A DNA stretch of 20,000 nucleotides from an uncultured virus (IMG/VR IMGVR_UViG_3300020125_000260) (lineage: Duplodnaviria > Heunggongvirae > Uroviricota > Caudoviricetes), in IMG/VR virus record IMGVR_UViG_3300020125_000260; one strand, 5' to 3'. Of the stretch, positions 5,853 to 13,387 are shown piece after piece. Position 1 is the stretch's first letter; each line of letters opens with the position of its first letter. The notes under the pieces are model-generated. The model was not told the DNA's origin. It saw only the letters and a program-made list of their open reading frames with translations, and did not search any database. The position numbers and the translations under genes are program-made.

Positions 5853-5864
5853 TTCGATGAATCA

Positions 5865-5903: not shown

Positions 5904-6071
5904 ATGGCAAAGTATCCACCGAAGGCGGCAATCGAGCGCGCGGGACACGAGATGAAGGTCAATCCGCCGAAGCAACTGGCGAAGACCGCCAAGAAATTCG
6001 GGGCCGCCGATGCTAAGAAGCAGCGAGTGGCGATCATGTTGAGCAAGGCACGTAAATCATCAGGAGGATAA
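5904..6071 (+). CDS. Small Lys-rich protein (55 aa), DUF6496-like
   Basis: 'KKQRVAIMLSKARKS' resembles the QAIAIALSxAR motif of small basic phage proteins; ATG 5904 is preferred over TTG 5865. Confidence 0.55.
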   Translation: MAKYPPKAAIERAGHEMKVNPPKQLAKTAKKFGAADAKKQRVAIMLSKARKSSGG

Positions 6072-6076
6072 CTCAG

Positions 6077-6223
6077 ATGGCATTCGGCAAAGGTGGCAAG
6101 GGCGGAGGCAAGAAATTCGGCAAGTCTGGCGGCTCAATGGGTGGCAAGGGCCTCAGCAAGGCCGGCGGGATGATCGCAACCGGGTCGAACGTGAAGGCGC
6201 TTGGCTCGAAGAAAGCTGGCTGA
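6077..6223 (+). CDS. Gly/Lys-rich micro-protein (48 aa), absent from the ORF track
   Basis: SD AGGAGG at 6062-6067; translation MAFGKGGKGGGKKFGKSGGSMGGKGLSKAGGMIATGSNVKALGSKKAG*; TGATG coupling to 6223. Confidence 0.7.
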   Translation: MAFGKGGKGGGKKFGKSGGSMGGKGLSKAGGMIATGSNVKALGSKKAG

Positions 6224-6555
6224 TGGCATCTCCACTGACAGGCCCGCCCCCGCAACCGACTCCGGTCGGCCAGCCGGGCAGTGCATCGCAACCGCCGCCG
6301 GGAGTCAATCCCTCCGCCGCGGGAGGCGATCAATCCCTCCAGCTGGTGACGCAGCACCTGATGGAGGCGGAGCAGGCCCTCCAGGCCGCAGCCAAGATCA
6401 AGCCGGAACTATCCGCGATCGTGGACAAGTTCGTGAACGAAGTGAAGCCCCAGGCCGGACAGATCCTGTTCGGCGCTGGACAACAGCCACAGATGCAGCC
6501 CCAGCCATCGCTCCAAGGCTTAGTTGCGGGCGGAGCGCAAGGGATGGGCCAGTGA
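6223..6555 (+). CDS. Pro/Gln-rich hypothetical protein (110 aa) with a central helical hairpin
   Basis: TGATG coupling; disordered P/Q-rich ends flank 'LQLVTQHLMEAEQALQAAAKIKPELSAIVDKFVNEV'. Confidence 0.65.
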   Translation: MASPLTGPPPQPTPVGQPGSASQPPPGVNPSAAGGDQSLQLVTQHLMEAEQALQAAAKIKPELSAIVDKFVNEVKPQAGQILFGAGQQPQMQPQPSLQGLVAGGAQGMGQ

Positions 6556-6643: not shown

Positions 6644-7414
6644 GTGGGACTGAACGAAGATGTAGCAGCATATGCGCAGGAGCTGGCGGACGCAGCCGGG
6701 ATCACCGATGCGACCGCACGCGAGGCGTTCATCAAAAACGACAAGGTACAAGCCAAGGTCAGGACTTCGCTCGAAGCCGTTAGTCGCGAGAAGGGCCGGG
6801 CCGAGGCGGAGTTCAAAAAGCGGCAGGAGGAGTATGCCGCCAACCTGAAGATCGCCGAGTCTAACGCGGCAGTGGTTACCGCAGCCGAGGCCAAGGTGAA
6901 AGCCTATGTGGAGAAGTTCGGAGAACTCCCAGGTGGGGGTGATCCTAACAATCCAACCGCAGCCCGTGCCGCCGTGGCCGACGCCATCGACAAGAAGACC
7001 TTCGACGAGCGGTTCAAATCCACCGAGGCTAACACCATCGGACTAGTGAAGATCGCCAGCAAGATCACGGCGACACACCTGAAGGACTTCAACGAGGTTC
7101 CGGACTTCGATGCGATTGAGAAGATCGCCACCGAACAGGGACTTTCAGCTGACAAGGCCTATCAGGAGTATCGCAAGCCAAAAGACGAGGAACGCGCCAA
7201 GGCCCGGCAGACTGAGGAGTTGAAGAAGGCTCGCGAGGAAGGCGAGATGGAAGGCCGCTCCAAGGTCGCCGCCGCAGTGATCTCCGACCCGGAGCGTAGT
7301 TCTCCATTCATGCAGAACCTGCGCAAGTCCGGCGAGGTCAAAGAAGGCCCGCGTGACTCGTTTGTGAAAGGCTGGCGCGAGGCCGCACAGCCCAAGGGTG
7401 GCGGAGCAGCGTAA
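6644..7414 (+). CDS. Capsid scaffolding protein (256 aa)
   Basis: SD AAGGAG before GTG; highly charged A/E/K coiled-coil; immediately upstream of the major capsid gene; short C-terminal amphipathic helix (RDSFVKGWREA). Confidence 0.7.
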   Translation: MGLNEDVAAYAQELADAAGITDATAREAFIKNDKVQAKVRTSLEAVSREKGRAEAEFKKRQEEYAANLKIAESNAAVVTAAEAKVKAYVEKFGELPGGGDPNNPTAARAAVADAIDKKTFDERFKSTEANTIGLVKIASKITATHLKDFNEVPDFDAIEKIATEQGLSADKAYQEYRKPKDEERAKARQTEELKKAREEGEMEGRSKVAAAVISDPERSSPFMQNLRKSGEVKEGPRDSFVKGWREAAQPKGGGAA

Positions 7415-7462: not shown

Positions 7463-8566
7463 GTGGCAGAACTCGATCAGATAAATCTCAGCACCCGACG
7501 CTACATTCGGGACAACCCCAAGCTGGTAGACAACGTATTTCAGAACGACCCTCTGCTGGCCTACCTCAAGCTCAACCTGCGCCAAGACTGGGACGGCGGC
7601 TCTCTTATTCAGGAGAACTTCGTCTACCGTAACCTGATCGGAGGCGGCTACCAGAAGGGTAAGACCTTCGATGGCTCCGAGCGTCAGGTCGAGCAGGGCT
7701 TTCAGATCATCCCCAAGACCTTCCAGGTGGGCGTGACCCTCGCCAAAGAGGACATCCAAGTCTTCAACCGTGGCGAACTCGCAGCCTTCAAGCTGGTGGA
7801 CTCTCGCATGACCACTGCCTACATGACCATGGGCGCATTCCTGGCCATCGGGCAGTACCTCAACGGGCAGGCGAACTTTATCGCCAACCTCAACGGCCTA
7901 GCGGAAATCTGCTCCGACGGCACCAACAATGGCTTCGACGGCGCCACCTACCTGACCTACGGAGGCATCACCCGCGGCGGCCAGACGCTCAATGCGCTAA
8001 AGTCCCCGCCGATTAATGTCAACGGGACCATCGAGTACAATGTGCTGGAGGAATCCTATGGCAACACTTCCTTCGGCAACATCGAGGCTAATCTCGGGGT
8101 GACCACTGTTCTCGGTTACTCCTTCATCAAGGAGAAGTTCCAGACCCAGCAGCGGTTCAACGACACCCAAGACCCAGCCATCGGATTCAACGGGCTGAAG
8201 TTCAACTCCGCGACGCTGATCAAGTCCCGCTACTGCCCTGGCACTGGCTCGGGCGGTTCCGCATCCGCCGACGGGATCGCTACCGCCGGCACCGACGCCA
8301 ACCTCGTGGCCGTGGACTTCCTTCAGCAGACCACCAACGGACTGGTGAACGCATATCCCACCGTGACCGGCGAGACGCTGTTCTGGGTTCAGGCGCGTGA
8401 GCCGTTCCTGAACTTCTACGTGTCCACCGACGCGGAGTATGGCTTCGGCTTCACCGGATTCAAGCCACATCAGCTCAATACATCGCTCGTCGGGCAGGTG
8501 CTATTTGCCGGGAACCTGACCGGGCATCCGCGCTATCAGAAACAGTTATTCGGCATCACCGGATAG
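7463..8566 (+). CDS. Major capsid protein (HK97 fold; P22/SU10-like), 367 aa
   Basis: N-terminus 'LVDNVFQNDPLLAYLK...GGSLIQENFVY' and 'IGFNGLKFNSATLIKSRYCPG' match podovirus-type coat proteins; strongly C-ending codons; follows the scaffold. Confidence 0.85.
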   Translation: MAELDQINLSTRRYIRDNPKLVDNVFQNDPLLAYLKLNLRQDWDGGSLIQENFVYRNLIGGGYQKGKTFDGSERQVEQGFQIIPKTFQVGVTLAKEDIQVFNRGELAAFKLVDSRMTTAYMTMGAFLAIGQYLNGQANFIANLNGLAEICSDGTNNGFDGATYLTYGGITRGGQTLNALKSPPINVNGTIEYNVLEESYGNTSFGNIEANLGVTTVLGYSFIKEKFQTQQRFNDTQDPAIGFNGLKFNSATLIKSRYCPGTGSGGSASADGIATAGTDANLVAVDFLQQTTNGLVNAYPTVTGETLFWVQAREPFLNFYVSTDAEYGFGFTGFKPHQLNTSLVGQVLFAGNLTGHPRYQKQLFGITG

Positions 8567-8634: not shown

Positions 8635-9237
8635 ATGGCAAACATCAGGGTCATTCAATCGCCCTACATCGGGCCGTTCGCCAATATTGAAGCTGTCGTG
8701 GAGCCATCCACTGGCTCGGGCGTGGGCATCCACGTCGGGGAACTCGGTGGCCGCGTGGAACTCACACAGACCGGCGCGGGCACCAAGGAATACCAGAAAG
8801 TGCAGCTCGACTCCGGCGCAGTGGCAGCTACCGCGGCTGGCGCACCGACCACCAACCAGCTACTCTACTGGAAAAATAAGCAGACCTATACCGTGACCAA
8901 CGACTCCCGCTTCGCTATCGGTGGCCAGACCACGCACGGCTGGCGCAACGAAGTCGCGGGCGTGCTCGTCCAACCGCAGGCCGCACTCACCGCCCAGATT
9001 GGCCTCGCGCCGTATATCTGGATTCAACAGAAGGGCAACTGTGCGGCGGTGAAAATCGCTTCCGGTTCCCCGAACCCTGGTGACACGCTCATCTCCGACA
9101 CCTCAGCCACTGCCGCCGAGGGCCTGATTGCCACGGCCTCGACCGCACCGGTTGTCCTGCCGCTGGGCCGGTTCACCACCGTGGGCACGACCGTCACCGT
9201 AGCTCCAGTCGATCTGGACATCCCCGGAATCCCGTAG
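8635..9237 (+). CDS. Capsid cement/decoration protein (200 aa)
   Basis: SD GAGGAGG; directly after the MCP; beta-rich with 'GGRVELTQTGAGTKEYQKVQ' and 'YIWIQQKG' typical of post-capsid decoration proteins. Confidence 0.55.
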   Translation: MANIRVIQSPYIGPFANIEAVVEPSTGSGVGIHVGELGGRVELTQTGAGTKEYQKVQLDSGAVAATAAGAPTTNQLLYWKNKQTYTVTNDSRFAIGGQTTHGWRNEVAGVLVQPQAALTAQIGLAPYIWIQQKGNCAAVKIASGSPNPGDTLISDTSATAAEGLIATASTAPVVLPLGRFTTVGTTVTVAPVDLDIPGIP

Positions 9238-9249
9238 AGAGGAGGCACC

Positions 9250-9516
9250 ATGGCAGCAGTCACAGTAGTACGTCAACGCACGGTTGTCTTCGGCGACCGC
9301 AAGGTGAAGCTCCTGAACATTAACATCGCCAACACGGGAGATTCCTATGCGACCGCCAACTTCGCGCATTCGATTGACGCCGCGCTGGCCGATGCTTCCG
9401 GTACCACGGTGGTGAACACGCAGATCACCACCGCTGGAGGTCCTGGCCCGGTGGTGTTCAACTACGCCGGTGGCGGTGCGCAGAACAACGTCGATGTGAT
9501 GATCATCGGAAGGTGA
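9250..9516 (+). CDS. Small beta-rich structural protein (88 aa)
   Basis: SD GAGGAGG; V/T/A/N-rich; lies in the head-gene block. Confidence 0.6.
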   Translation: MAAVTVVRQRTVVFGDRKVKLLNINIANTGDSYATANFAHSIDAALADASGTTVVNTQITTAGGPGPVVFNYAGGGAQNNVDVMIIGR

Positions 9517-9519
9517 CCC

Positions 9520-10473
9520 ATCGCACTCGACACATATGACCGCATAGTTGATGCCCTCCTGCTCAGGTGCCCCCTGGCAGGAGGGCAGCTCGCTGAGCAG
9601 TTCATCAACTATGCCTTCCGCGACCTGATCGAGAAGCGCAAGTGGTCGTGGTCGATCTCGCAGTCGCAGTTCATCTTTCCTGCGGCGGTCACCGCTGGCA
9701 CCGTAACTGTCACCAACCAGTCGAATGCGGTCGTGGGCATTGGCACCGCGTGGAACGCCACAATGATTGGCCAGCAGTTCCGCACCTCCACGCTGACTCC
9801 GATCTACACGATTACCGCAGTGGGCAGTGCAACCACGCTCACGCTGGATCAGCCGTGGGGAGCGGCATCCGCCAGCGGGCAGGGATATAAGATTTACATC
9901 GCGTACCAGATCCCACCACTCGACTTCCATGCCTTCGTGTCTATCTGGGACCCGAACTTCAGTTGGTCACTCTGGAGTACGGTCTCACAGGCGGAACTAA
10001 ACACCTACGACGCCCAGCGAGCGTCGCAGGGAACTCCCTACGTGGTAGCGGACTTCGACTATACCTCCCTTGCGTTCGGCGGGGCTACCATCACTCCCGC
10101 GCTGCCACGGTTCGAGGTCTGGCCGCACCAACAAGCTGCATACGTAATCCCGTTCATGTATGAGCGCCGCTTCCCCGATCTGAACGACGCGACCGGGCAG
10201 CTCCCACGGTTCATCCCCGGCAATGTCCTGCTGGAGGGCGGCCTTGCAGCCTGCGCGCGCTGGCCGGGGCCGGACGCCGATCACCGCAATCCCTACTTCG
10301 GATTGACCTTGGCAGGGATGCATCAGGAGCGTTACGATAAGGCCGTGCGGGAGCTGGAGCGGAACGATGATGAAGTTTATGGGCGGGATGTGAATTACGG
10401 CATCCAAGACCTGCCGTTCTGTCCGTATCCTTTCCCAGTGAACGCTAGCTACTTGCAACTACACGCAATCTAG
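9520..10473 (+). CDS. Head-tail adaptor/ring protein 1 (about 317 aa) with an inserted beta domain; probable ATC start
   Basis: Frame is open from 9517 with no ATG/GTG/TTG until 9733, yet 9520-9732 encodes an adaptor-type N-terminus (ALDTYDRIVDALLLRCPLAGGQLAEQFINYAFRDLIEKRKWSW). SD-like GAAGGTGA lies just before ATC 9520. The C-terminal part has 'GTPYVVA...FEVWPH...YERRFPDL...LPRFIPGNVLLEG'. Confidence 0.7.
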   Translation: MALDTYDRIVDALLLRCPLAGGQLAEQFINYAFRDLIEKRKWSWSISQSQFIFPAAVTAGTVTVTNQSNAVVGIGTAWNATMIGQQFRTSTLTPIYTITAVGSATTLTLDQPWGAASASGQGYKIYIAYQIPPLDFHAFVSIWDPNFSWSLWSTVSQAELNTYDAQRASQGTPYVVADFDYTSLAFGGATITPALPRFEVWPHQQAAYVIPFMYERRFPDLNDATGQLPRFIPGNVLLEGGLAACARWPGPDADHRNPYFGLTLAGMHQERYDKAVRELERNDDEVYGRDVNYGIQDLPFCPYPFPVNASYLQLHAI

Positions 10474-10481
10474 GAGGAACC

Positions 10482-10676
10482 ATGAGCAAGATGATCAAGA
10501 CCGGAGTCAGCGATTATGGCATGAAGCCATCATGTGAGCCCTCAGGCAACGTTGTCACGGATGGAAAGATGACTACAGTCCCGGTGCCTTCGCGCACATC
10601 GGGGGCAAACTCCATCCCCGAGGTAACGCTCGATCAATCGGCAGGGCTGCCGAGCCGGAGCGGTGGCGGCAAGTGA
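10482..10676 (+). CDS. Small low-complexity hypothetical protein (64 aa)
   Basis: SD AGGAGG at good spacing; GTGA coupling to rmlB. Confidence 0.65.
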   Translation: MSKMIKTGVSDYGMKPSCEPSGNVVTDGKMTTVPVPSRTSGANSIPEVTLDQSAGLPSRSGGGK

Positions 10677-11725
10677 GCCGCGACACCGTATTAATCACTG
10701 GAGGTGCCGGTTTTGGAGGCTCTCATATATGCCAGCACATCCTCGACAATACCGACTGGGACGTGGTGGTTCTGGACCGCATCACCTACGCCGGCTCGCT
10801 CGAACGCCTGGTGGATGTCCGACGCGACTATCCAGACCGGCTGCGATTCGTATATCACGACTTTCGCAGTCAGTATCCCCCGAGCGTCCTGCACGCGCTA
10901 CGGGGGGTACGCTATGTCATCCACAACGGCGCGGAGACGCACGTAGCGCGGTCGCTGGAGTCGCCAGCCGTGTTCGTCGAGTCCAACGTCCTTGGCACGA
11001 TGCACACGCTGAACGCAGCCCGCGTGCTGGGAATCGATCACTTTATCTACGTCTCCACCGACGAGGTGCTGGGCGCCGCTCCCGAGGGCGTGGACTACGA
11101 TGAACTAGCGCAAGTGCAGCCGTCGAATCCCTATGCTGCGTCAAAGGCTGGCGGCGAGGCCCTGGCGTTCAGCTACTGGAAGGCGTTCAAGCTGCCGGTG
11201 ACGATCACTCGCACGATGAACCTCTTCGGCGAGCGTCAGCACCCGGAGAAGTTCGTTCCGATGACGATGCGGAAGCTAATGGCTGCGGAGCCGTTGACGA
11301 TTCACGGCGATGCGACCGGTCGCAGCGGCGCGAGGAAATGGCTGCATGCGAGGAACCAGGCGAGCGCGTTGCTGTTCCTTCTGCGCGAATGGGACTTGGT
11401 AAGCGGCCCCAAGAATGGTCCGCGTCCATTTGGAAAGACCTTCCACATCGCAGGCGAGGAGCACACCAACCTTGAAATCGCGGAGCTGATCGCTGACGAG
11501 CTAAAGACCGACTTCGCCTATGAGATCGTCGATTTCACTCTCGCTCGTCCGGGGCACGACTTCCGCTATAGCCTTGACGATTCCAAGCTCCGTTCCCTCG
11601 GCTGGTTCCCTCCCGTGCCGTTCGAGGAATCGCTCCGTCGCACGGTGGCATGGTCGGCCCGCGCAGAGAACCGCTACTGGCTGGAGGAGTCGCACGTCCC
11701 AGTAGCTACCCTGGCAGGAGGCTAA
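10673..11725 (+). CDS. rmlB: dTDP-glucose 4,6-dehydratase (extended SDR, RmlB/RfbB)
   Basis: VLITGGAGFGG NAD motif, DRITYAG, AETHV.RS, catalytic STDEV and YAASK (YxxxK), QHPEKFVP, RPGHDFRY; all RmlB signatures. Confidence 0.92.
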   Translation: MSRDTVLITGGAGFGGSHICQHILDNTDWDVVVLDRITYAGSLERLVDVRRDYPDRLRFVYHDFRSQYPPSVLHALRGVRYVIHNGAETHVARSLESPAVFVESNVLGTMHTLNAARVLGIDHFIYVSTDEVLGAAPEGVDYDELAQVQPSNPYAASKAGGEALAFSYWKAFKLPVTITRTMNLFGERQHPEKFVPMTMRKLMAAEPLTIHGDATGRSGARKWLHARNQASALLFLLREWDLVSGPKNGPRPFGKTFHIAGEEHTNLEIAELIADELKTDFAYEIVDFTLARPGHDFRYSLDDSKLRSLGWFPPVPFEESLRRTVAWSARAENRYWLEESHVPVATLAGG

Positions 11726-11728
11726 CCC

Positions 11729-13006
11729 TTGCAGCGAGTCACCATCTCGGCGGCGAAGGGGAACGTCCAAGTCAACACGGGTGGCCAGATTTCAACCACT
11801 CTCGTGGAAGGCTCATTCCCCGGTTGCACGGTATCCGTGTTTATTACTGGAACTACGAACCTCGTCCCGGCGATCTACGGTGATAATCTCAATCCCCCGA
11901 CGCCGAAGGCTAATCCGTTTACATCTGATCTGCAAACTGGATTTGCATTCTTCTATGCCCCCAACGGTACGCGATGCGACATCCAACTATCTGGCACTGG
12001 GATTACTACACCGTTCATTGTTGCAGCTGATGTTTTGGTGGATGATCCCTCACTCCTCGCGGTGCTGGCCCCGCAGACCGTGGCCTTCAACGCGACTCCC
12101 ACCTTTGATCTATCGCAGGCGAGCTGGTTCAAGATGACCCTCACTGGGAACGTGACTGGGCCGGTGTTCTTGAACCCCGTCGCTGGATCGATCCTCATCT
12201 TGTCGCTGGCGCAGAACGCCGCCGGCGGCTGGACGTTCGCGTTCCCCGCAGCGTTCATTGACCCTCCAGCGATTGCTGCTGGAGTGAACGCCCGCACGGA
12301 GTTGATATTCAAGTACGACGGTGTGAACTGGACGGCGGTCGCGGCGACTGGCGATAACCTCCAGGTTCCGGGTAGTGGGGCCATCATCGGAGCCTTGACC
12401 GTCGGCGGAGCCCTCGTCGTCACTGGGGCGATCACCGCCGGGAGCTTCACCAACAACCTCTCCGCGTTCGCAGCCACTACCTCGGCACAACTCGCGGGAA
12501 TCCTGACCGACGAGCAGGGCTCTGGGAGAGCGGTATTCGATACGTCGCCGACGCTGACGACTCCAAGTCTTATAGCCCCAGTCGTCCAAGGAATCATTAC
12601 CACTTACAACGCCTTTACCCTTGTAGGAAATGGCATTCCCGTGCTTGCACAGACGATCGATCTCACTGGGCAGACCGCCAACATTGGCTCGACGCAGCTA
12701 ATATCACTGGGGCCAGGCGGCGCGGGCATGTACCGAGTCAGCGTCTATGCCATCGTGACCTCGGTGGGAACGACCTCCACCCTCCCGGCAGTGAATGTCA
12801 TCTTCACCGACAGGAACAACAGCGTGTCGCAGACGATTGCCATCACTGCCACCAACACCGGAAACACGACAACCACACTGGCGCAGGGACAGGCGTTCAT
12901 CTCCGCCAAGGCCAGCACGGTCATCAGCTACTCCACGACGGGATACGCATCCACTGGCGCGGCGATGCAGTACGCGCTGCACATCAAACTGGAGCCGATG
13001 CTGTGA
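11729..13006 (+). CDS. Tail fibre/tailspike-like receptor-binding protein (425 aa)
   Basis: SD AGGAGG before TTG. N-terminal anchor 'TVSVFITGTTNL..IY.D.....ANPFTSD..G...FYA'; fibre module 'DLSQ....TLTGN...Q.AAGG.T..FP...F.YDG.NW'; 'DEQGSG.AVF.TSPTLTTP' motif; C-terminal C1q/TNF-like beta domain (GMYRVSVY). Confidence 0.75.
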   Translation: MQRVTISAAKGNVQVNTGGQISTTLVEGSFPGCTVSVFITGTTNLVPAIYGDNLNPPTPKANPFTSDLQTGFAFFYAPNGTRCDIQLSGTGITTPFIVAADVLVDDPSLLAVLAPQTVAFNATPTFDLSQASWFKMTLTGNVTGPVFLNPVAGSILILSLAQNAAGGWTFAFPAAFIDPPAIAAGVNARTELIFKYDGVNWTAVAATGDNLQVPGSGAIIGALTVGGALVVTGAITAGSFTNNLSAFAATTSAQLAGILTDEQGSGRAVFDTSPTLTTPSLIAPVVQGIITTYNAFTLVGNGIPVLAQTIDLTGQTANIGSTQLISLGPGGAGMYRVSVYAIVTSVGTTSTLPAVNVIFTDRNNSVSQTIAITATNTGNTTTTLAQGQAFISAKASTVISYSTTGYASTGAAMQYALHIKLEPML

Positions 13007-13010
13007 TGCG

Positions 13011-13178
13011 CTACTGGATGCAGAACATGTTGTTGGGCATTGACGGGCACGGAGTCGGAGTCGGCGTGGGAGTAGGAGTTGCTCGGGGTGGCGGGTCGTC
13101 CTGTGGCAACACACGCTGGGCGAGGACGACAAACGCGCTGGACAGCAGCAGGATAACAAGCAAGATGAGTTTTCTCAT
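13011..13178 (-). CDS. Small secreted Pro/Thr-rich peptide (55 aa), antisense to the operon
   Basis: Sec-type signal peptide MRKLILLVILLLSSAFVVLA|Q; mature part QRVLPQDDPPPRATPTPTPTPTPCPSMPNNMFCIQ; perfect TATAAT 10 nt upstream; fits between two + genes without overlap. Confidence 0.6.
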   Translation of the reverse strand: MRKLILLVILLLSSAFVVLAQRVLPQDDPPPRATPTPTPTPTPCPSMPNNMFCIQ

Positions 13179-13188
13179 GAGGCTAGTA

Positions 13189-13194
13189 ATTATA
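13189..13194 (-). promoter_or_regulatory. -10 element TATAAT (possibly part of a bidirectional promoter)
   Basis: AT island GTAATTATATAACACAAT in GC-rich DNA; minus strand reads TGTGTTA-TATAAT; plus strand has TATAAC at 13193-13198; no convincing -35. Confidence 0.5.
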
Positions 13195-13216
13195 TAACAC
13201 AATCTGGAGGTGGCTT

Positions 13217-13387
13217 ATGCCAATCAGCATGTTGTTCTGGTTTCTCTTCATCCTGTGGGTTCTCTTCGGAGGCTGGGTATATCAACCCACCGCTGGAAAC
13301 TGGCGGCCATTCGGCGGCCATCTCCTGCTGTGCCTGCTGATCTTCCTCCTTGGTTGGCATGTGTTTGGCTTCGTCATCAAGGGGTGA
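13217..13387 (+). CDS. Small two-TM membrane protein (56 aa), holin candidate; absent from the ORF track
   Basis: SD GGAGGT at 13206-13211; translation MPISMLFWFLFILWVLFGGWVYQPTAGNWRPFGGHLLLCLLIFLLGWHVFGFVIKG*. Confidence 0.7.
   Translation: MPISMLFWFLFILWVLFGGWVYQPTAGNWRPFGGHLLLCLLIFLLGWHVFGFVIKG

Follow-up and report, generated by a model that had tools for sequence, protein, structure and literature searches.

The 20,000-nucleotide (nt) stretch analyzed here, hereafter the window, is one strand of IMG/VR record IMGVR_UViG_3300020125_000260, an uncultured soil phage of the Caudoviricetes. It contains a gene for a predicted head-to-tail adaptor that directly follows a gene for an 88-amino acid (aa) protein, and the adaptor gene has no conventional start codon. 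After the TGA stop of the 88-aa gene (9514-9516) the same frame reads CCC (9517) ATC (9520) GCA CTC GAC and remains open through 10473, and an in-frame scan found no ATG, GTG or TTG between this TGA and codon 72 (GTG 9733, counted from the ATC). Initiation at the ATC would leave a stop-to-start spacer of 3 nt. Because the Shine-Dalgarno (SD)-like sequence GGAAGGTGA sits at 9508-9516, its AAGG core ends 6 nt before the ATC, and its 3’ end is the upstream stop codon itself. The 19 other genes listed in the window start with ATG (15), GTG (3) or TTG (1), mostly behind GGAGG-type SD motifs at a spacing similar to that of the adaptor gene, and 6 of these 19 share its second codon, GCA (Ala). A preliminary description of the locus had pointed to the missing canonical start, the well-placed SD and the GCA second codon, all of which hold on re-examination. 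Features of the locus are collected in Table 1.

Table 1. Features of the adaptor locus, with positions in the window.
Feature	Position	Strand	Basis and remarks
Upstream 88-aa gene	9250..9516	+	ATG 9250, TGA stop 9514-9516; open reading frame (ORF) listing
Predicted RNA hairpin	9490..9531	+	5’ arm, last codons of the 88-aa gene; 3’ arm, GGUGA of the SD plus AUC
SD-like GGAAGGTGA	9508..9516	+	Last three bases are the TGA of the 88-aa gene; read directly
Adaptor gene	9520..10473	+	317 aa plus TAG 10471-10473
Proposed initiation codon ATC of the adaptor gene	9520..9522	+	Homologue alignment, DNA of relatives
Inserted beta domain of the adaptor (P0001 residues 55-129)	9679..9903	+	PHROG and VIA matches
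GTG, first canonical in-frame start of the adaptor frame	9733..9735	+	No SD upstream; inside the inserted beta domain
ATG used by public call P0081	9763..9765	+	236 aa, 81 residues short

Judged by its modelled fold, the gene at 9520-10473 encodes a podophage head-to-tail adaptor. The translation of 9517-10470 (P0001) matched no Pfam family at E<=0.01; of five homologues scanned against PF24175 (SU10_adaptor), four reached the 27-bit cut-off (27.6-68.8 bits) and one did not. An AlphaFold2 model of P0001, built from 62 sequences, has a predicted local distance difference test (pLDDT) score of 86.5, and all 8 PDB matches that Foldseek returned for it at E<=0.001 were chains of podophage portal-tail or tail entries. 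Alignment with VIA gave Z scores of 12.8 for Pa223 (root-mean-square deviation [rmsd] 3.7, 197 residues aligned), 12.1 for A4, 11.6 for GP4, 11.3 for SU10 and 8.9 for T7 gp11. On the model these alignments start within residues 1-5, and on the solved chains within residues 1-7. The N-terminal helices of the model (residues 7-17 and 19-38) are both encoded before GTG 9733, and since the alignments to solved adaptors start at residues 1-5, this helix pair belongs to the adaptor fold. The family matches of the homologues, the model and both structural searches thus agree with the preliminary description, which had recognized an adaptor with a typical N-terminal helix pair.

Compared with the podophage adaptors (SU10 PF24175, T7 gp11, Pa223, GP4, VP1 and N4), the fold is shared over nearly the full length (Z 8.7-12.8, rmsd 3.6-5.4, 161-197 residues) and the gene likewise follows the major head protein gene, located here at 7463-8566. 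The window adaptor differs in being about 100 residues longer than the solved adaptors (185-243 aa), owing to the inserted beta domain, and, unlike four of the five scanned homologues, it falls below the PF24175 threshold. PHROG tail-fibre families match P0001 residues 59-127 (best E 7.7e-09), and VIA comparison of residues 55-129 gave Z scores of 7-8.4 to Bridgette, the LKA1 tailspike and the lambda tail tip. The inserted domain, which starts upstream of GTG 9733, resembles the N-terminal domain of tail fibres and tailspikes and may be a docking site for fibres. A tblastn search with P0001 found no match in the collection of cultured phages.

To place the N-terminus, we relied on homologues and on the DNA of related loci. 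Searches found 78 homologues (174-557 aa), of which 61 were aligned with P0001 (alignment A1); the 17 others were short, poorly covering, or of a long 403-412-aa form. The consensus N-terminus of A1, MALDT, falls exactly on I-A-L-D-T of the window, i.e., on ATC 9520. Related DNA loci came from viral contigs (32), metagenome contigs (80 of 92 matches) and genomes (3), and dropping exact duplicates and loci cut before the start left 76 distinct loci, including the window. The aligned start codon is ATG in 33 of these, GTG in 25, TTG in 11, CTG in four (L037, L039, L040 and L116), ATT in one (L043) and ATC in the window alone; it is unclear in one (L109). Near-cognate starts thus represent five independent lineages, as L039 and L040 are near-identical, and in the subclade of at least 63% identity they occur in 4 of 10 distinct loci. 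All five near-cognate relatives carry GGAGG- or GGAAGGG-type SD motifs, and their first canonical in-frame codon lies 12-28 codons downstream with no SD. The CTG of L037 and of L116 must itself initiate, as the upstream gene is in another frame there. Conservation of ATC, ATT or ATA at homologous loci had been raised as a check in the preliminary description: near-cognate codons do recur (four CTG, one ATT), but ATC is found in the window only, and 69 of the 75 other loci have ATG, GTG or TTG. On these alignments, the N-terminus of the protein lies at ATC 9520, where its homologues have their start codon.

The homologue set also includes a sub-family of adaptors about 90 residues longer (403-412 aa; P0057-P0072 and several of loci L021-L026 and L090-L113), in which the extra length must be internal or C-terminal because the N-terminus is the same as in the shorter adaptors. 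Distant members of the family lie in metagenome-assembled genomes (MAGs) of Candidatus Sulfotelmatobacter (L114 and L115) and Gemmatimonadota (L116). Their placement in Acidobacteriota and Gemmatimonadota genomes hints at the hosts, or else phage contigs were binned together with these genomes. When 401 genomes from the class of genome G001 were searched, the matches were G001 and four distant ones (E 7e-11 to 9e-17), and they added no close adaptor locus.

The pattern of substitutions in the segment ahead of the first canonical codon suggests that it is translated. In comparisons with 8 close loci, the ratio of nonsynonymous to synonymous change (pN/pS) over codons 2-71 is 0.17-0.48, and most comparisons of the following 70 codons fall within that range. 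The codons directly after the start differ from those of relatives almost only at synonymous positions. By this measure, codons 2-71 are under purifying selection and are real coding sequence rather than a chance open frame. A start farther downstream (GTG 9733, ATG 9763, in-frame ATA 9544 or CTG 9559), with the upstream segment untranslated, is hardly credible in view of these values, even though gene callers choose such sites and public call P0081 begins at 9763. Synonymous-only changes set in right after the proposed start codon, a downstream start would remove the helix pair at the N-terminus together with the opening strands of the inserted domain, and no SD precedes any of these four sites. 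The preliminary description had named a true start at 9733, with homologues lacking the upstream segment, as the result that would undo its reading; the segment is present in the homologues, aligned on ATC 9520, and a start at 9733 is contradicted by both pN/pS and the fold.

Public gene calls shorten the adaptor because ATC here, and CTG or ATT in several relatives, probably serve as the start codon. The public call of the window’s protein, P0081, which comes from a 65,157-nt JGI/IMG contig, has 236 aa rather than 317 and was identical, in a comparison by eye, to the window translation from ATG 9763. Likewise, P0028 (294 aa) is the L043 gene with its ATT start, called from an internal ATG, as checked on the DNA of the locus. 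Altogether, 15 of the 61 A1 homologues start inside the aligned protein, at sites that are L or V in the other sequences. These truncated calls all fall among the 37 closer homologues, with none among the 24 more distant ones, and in a maximum-likelihood tree they are scattered among full-length ones. P0002 (90% identity), the nearest neighbour of the window protein on the tree, is also a truncated call.

These calls bear on one objection, i.e., that the true codon at 9520-9522 is ATG or another canonical start, with sequencing or assembly having wrongly put a C at 9522. A single base change would suffice, and P0080, a member of the same 90% cluster, is a full-length 317-aa call that starts with M. 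However, five independently assembled loci besides the window have CTG or ATT at this position, so that no sequencing error is needed to account for a near-cognate codon here, and P0002 is likewise called from an internal codon. The public call P0081 also lacks the N-terminus, but it is not independent support because that record and the window may share an assembly. It is rare for a consensus to be wrong at any particular base, and we consider an error at 9522 improbable.

Alternatively, the start codon may have been lost by mutation in a decaying or attenuated allele that yields little adaptor or none. In Escherichia coli reporters ATC is an inefficient start, and metagenome contigs can come from defective genomes. 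Against this, the whole ORF is intact and under purifying selection, the neighbouring genes are intact, and near-cognate starts recur in several lineages of the clade, each with a strong SD, which would be unexpected for random decay. We regard decay of the gene as quite improbable.

The arrangement of the two genes raises a further alternative, in which the UGA is read through in frame and most of the adaptor is produced joined to the 88-aa protein (88 + 1 + 318 = 407 residues), with no initiation at the AUC. The two genes share a reading frame, a single sense codon separates TGA from ATC, and the UGA is followed by C, which is a weak stop context in E. coli. The upstream stop is TGA in 5 of the 6 near-cognate loci, and spacer length is divisible by three in 40 of 64 loci, against an expected one third, over many different lengths of 0 to 36 nt. 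The latter excess may reflect descent, with stops and starts shifting by point mutation. Most relatives, however, stop the upstream gene with TAA or TAG, and several (e.g., L007, L011, L017 and L049) have two or three in-frame stops in the spacer. The two genes occupy different frames in 24 of the 64 loci, among them L037 and L116 with their CTG starts. In the three loci with a common layout of an SD ending in TGA, 3 nt and the start, the base after TGA is C, G or T, and an SD of the form GGAGGTGA naturally yields a TGA. No N-terminal fusion occurs among the 78 homologues; the seven of 403-412 aa, close to the length of the hypothetical product, were considered as fusions and rejected, as they begin with the same MALDT-type N-terminus. 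Recoding of TGA was also ruled out, because TGA ends 8 of the 20 listed window genes. The comparison of loci therefore does not support programmed readthrough as a family feature, contrary to one suggestion of the preliminary description, and readthrough as the main route to the window adaptor is very improbable.

Upstream stop and adaptor start are 2, 3, 3, 3, 3 and 10 nt apart in the six near-cognate loci; in the 58 canonical loci the median distance is 16 nt (range 0-41; Mann-Whitney p = 0.001, relatedness ignored). Spacers of <=10 nt occur in 6/6 near-cognate loci vs 19/58 canonical loci (Fisher p = 0.002, again ignoring relatedness). In the near-cognate loci the SD overlaps or abuts the upstream stop, and L043 (GGGAGGTGA) and L039/L040 (CGGAGGTGA) share the layout of the window, i.e., an SD ending in TGA, 3 nt, and a near-cognate start. 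A predicted hairpin covers the same region: when 61 nt are folded, it has a free energy of -20.9 kcal/mol, makes up 0.78 of the ensemble and scores z -2.82, with 2 of 200 shuffles folding as well. The same stem in a 111-nt context scores z -1.68. This predicted structure over the SD and AUC is only suggestive of coupling.

The 88-aa gene also precedes the adaptor gene in relatives. Its family, whose members have about 85 aa and were traced with an iterated hidden Markov model, stands immediately before the adaptor gene in 64 of the 76 distinct loci and starts with ATG in 62 of 63, whereas ATG starts the adaptor gene in 33 of 75 (Fisher p = 1e-13, with relatedness ignored). The adaptor is therefore systematically given weaker start codons than its neighbour. 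The 88-aa protein matched no Pfam or PHROG family and no PDB entry at E<=0.001 in Foldseek, and its AlphaFold2 model (pLDDT 90.8) is a six-stranded all-beta sandwich. The best VIA scores, 8.2 and 7.8, are borderline and fall on tip domains of the phage AP22 tail fibre and of R-type pyocin fibres. On the model, it is a conserved, predicted small beta-sandwich, and not a shown capsid protein.

Taken together, these data make it probable that the adaptor is translated by SD-led initiation at AUC 9520, coupled to termination of the upstream gene. The SD GGAAGGUGA (9508-9516) would position a 30S subunit on AUC 9520, and initiator tRNA would place methionine at this codon. The hairpin may bury both the SD and the AUC. 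As the SD holds the UGA, the spacer is 3 nt and the start may be buried by the hairpin, initiation is most likely coupled to upstream termination; ribosomes finishing the 88-aa gene could re-bind locally or re-initiate, or could unfold the hairpin. In E. coli reporters, AUC supports about 1-2% (0.02-3%) of the expression from AUG, with methionine found at the N-terminus by mass spectrometry (bioRxiv 10.1101/063800). A step-down in the amount of adaptor is plausible because of this low output: the weak codon would fix adaptor output at a small fraction of upstream output. Low output would suit a part of a 12-fold ring, a copy number taken from solved relatives (e.g., 8vb4, ‘C12 portal and adaptor complex’). 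The preliminary description had proposed a device stepping expression down from high-copy capsid proteins to such a ring. The use of weak starts across the family (ATG in 33/75 adaptor genes vs 62/63 upstream genes) fits the step-down, but the upstream gene is not a shown capsid gene and many relatives have ATG with a strong SD.

A stronger version of this idea is that, throughout this clade of soil podophages, the adaptor is made only by ribosomes that have just finished the 88-aa gene. The stop inside the SD, the small spacer and the weak codon would jointly hard-wire a ratio of roughly one adaptor per tens to hundreds of upstream proteins, with the start codon tuned by evolution (ATG > GTG > TTG > CTG/ATT/ATC) to the packing of stop and start. 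We consider this version unlikely, though if it were true, virion stoichiometry in uncultured phages could be read from the identity of the start codon.

Several observations weigh against coupled initiation at the AUC, or against the role proposed for it. Expression at 0.02-3% of that from AUG would be low for an essential virion part. Many relatives pair ATG with a strong SD, so low output is no general need of the family, and the weak start codon may be merely tolerated. The statistics given above rest on five independent near-cognate lineages with relatedness ignored. The start regions of relatives fold differently and without significance (z from -1.6 to +1.0), and conservation of the hairpin is accordingly not shown. 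As the UGA is in frame and has C as its next base, a small amount of fusion protein may also be made by readthrough in the window phage, alongside the adaptor initiated at the AUC. Two of the truncated public calls, P0028 and P0081, are traced to sequence; in the other 14 truncated A1 homologues a non-canonical start is presumed. For base 9522 itself, the four DNA sequencing runs that match the window do so at shares of 0.05-0.07 and hold relatives only; among the runs there was no RNA run, and none held at least half of the window’s sequence words. Of the short contigs assembled from reads of these relatives, one (X1; 334 nt, 25 differences) crosses the site, spanning 9219-9540, and there is no change at 9520-9522 among the differences listed.

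Near-cognate initiation with similar features is known in other systems. The infC gene of E. coli encodes initiation factor 3 (IF3) and is subject to IF3 autoregulation. Like the adaptor gene as proposed here, infC and pcnB use an SD-led AUN or CUG start, in their case AUU, that is read by initiator tRNA with low output. They differ in being cellular regulatory genes, whereas the adaptor is a phage virion gene, known from sequence alone, whose start codon varies among close relatives (ATG, GTG, TTG, CTG, ATT and ATC). Both AUU starts are named in the E. coli reporter study (bioRxiv 10.1101/063800). The EbpA pilus-tip protein of Enterococcus faecalis has an ATT start, and its mutation to ATG raised expression (PMC4447247). 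EbpA resembles the adaptor as a low-copy part of an assembly with a rare start codon and a wrongly annotated downstream ATG; it is bacterial and was tested by mutagenesis, and the abstract of that paper describes no coupling to an upstream stop (PMC4447247).

TTG, CTG, ATT and ATC are listed in phage annotation guidance as alternative start codons missed by automatic callers (PMC8785237). What differs here is that one codon position varies among six codons, with near-cognates only beside an upstream stop. Translational coupling is reported to need overlapping genes or very short distances (PMC10666635; PMC12548453). The adaptor locus resembles coupled systems in its 3-nt stop-start distance, in an SD located within the 3’ end of the upstream gene and in a hairpin that may cover the start region. 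Common coupled layouts, however, have -4 and -1 overlaps and canonical starts; the adaptor has a +3 spacer and a near-cognate start, and its coupling is read from sequence features. A literature search of limited coverage found no paper on start-codon turnover in adaptor genes. Two phage papers did not bear on the question: the one on the SPP1 genome gives a codon table only, and the one on Mecenats66 says that CTG starts were not assumed.

Elsewhere in the window, the 425-aa gene starting at TTG 11729 mirrors the layout of the adaptor gene (11708-11731: GGAGG, upstream stop TAA, CCC, start). Another open frame of 170 codons (6043-6555), in the gap between a gene ending at 5860 and one starting at 6644, offers no canonical start over its first 60 codons, until 6223. 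A further start-less open frame (13044-13340) was taken as spurious, being Arg-rich and without a homologue in the loci. The structural module also holds, right after the adaptor gene and a 64-aa gene, a gene for an NAD-dependent nucleotide-sugar epimerase/dehydratase (10673-11725; PF01370, E 5.5e-45; phrog_540, E 2.7e-75), and its GTG start overlaps the preceding TGA as GTGA.

Near-cognate starts are already known in phages and bacteria; what is added here is the family view, in which six codons occupy one conserved position while the neighbouring gene keeps its ATG. Gene callers restricted to ATG, GTG and TTG shorten the adaptor, and structure predictions and family profiles derived from such calls lose the N-terminal helix pair. 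The family is a natural series of graded start codons at one position beside a gene with a near-invariant ATG. It is thus a simple system for asking whether phages set the ratios of their virion parts by start-codon strength together with stop-start coupling.

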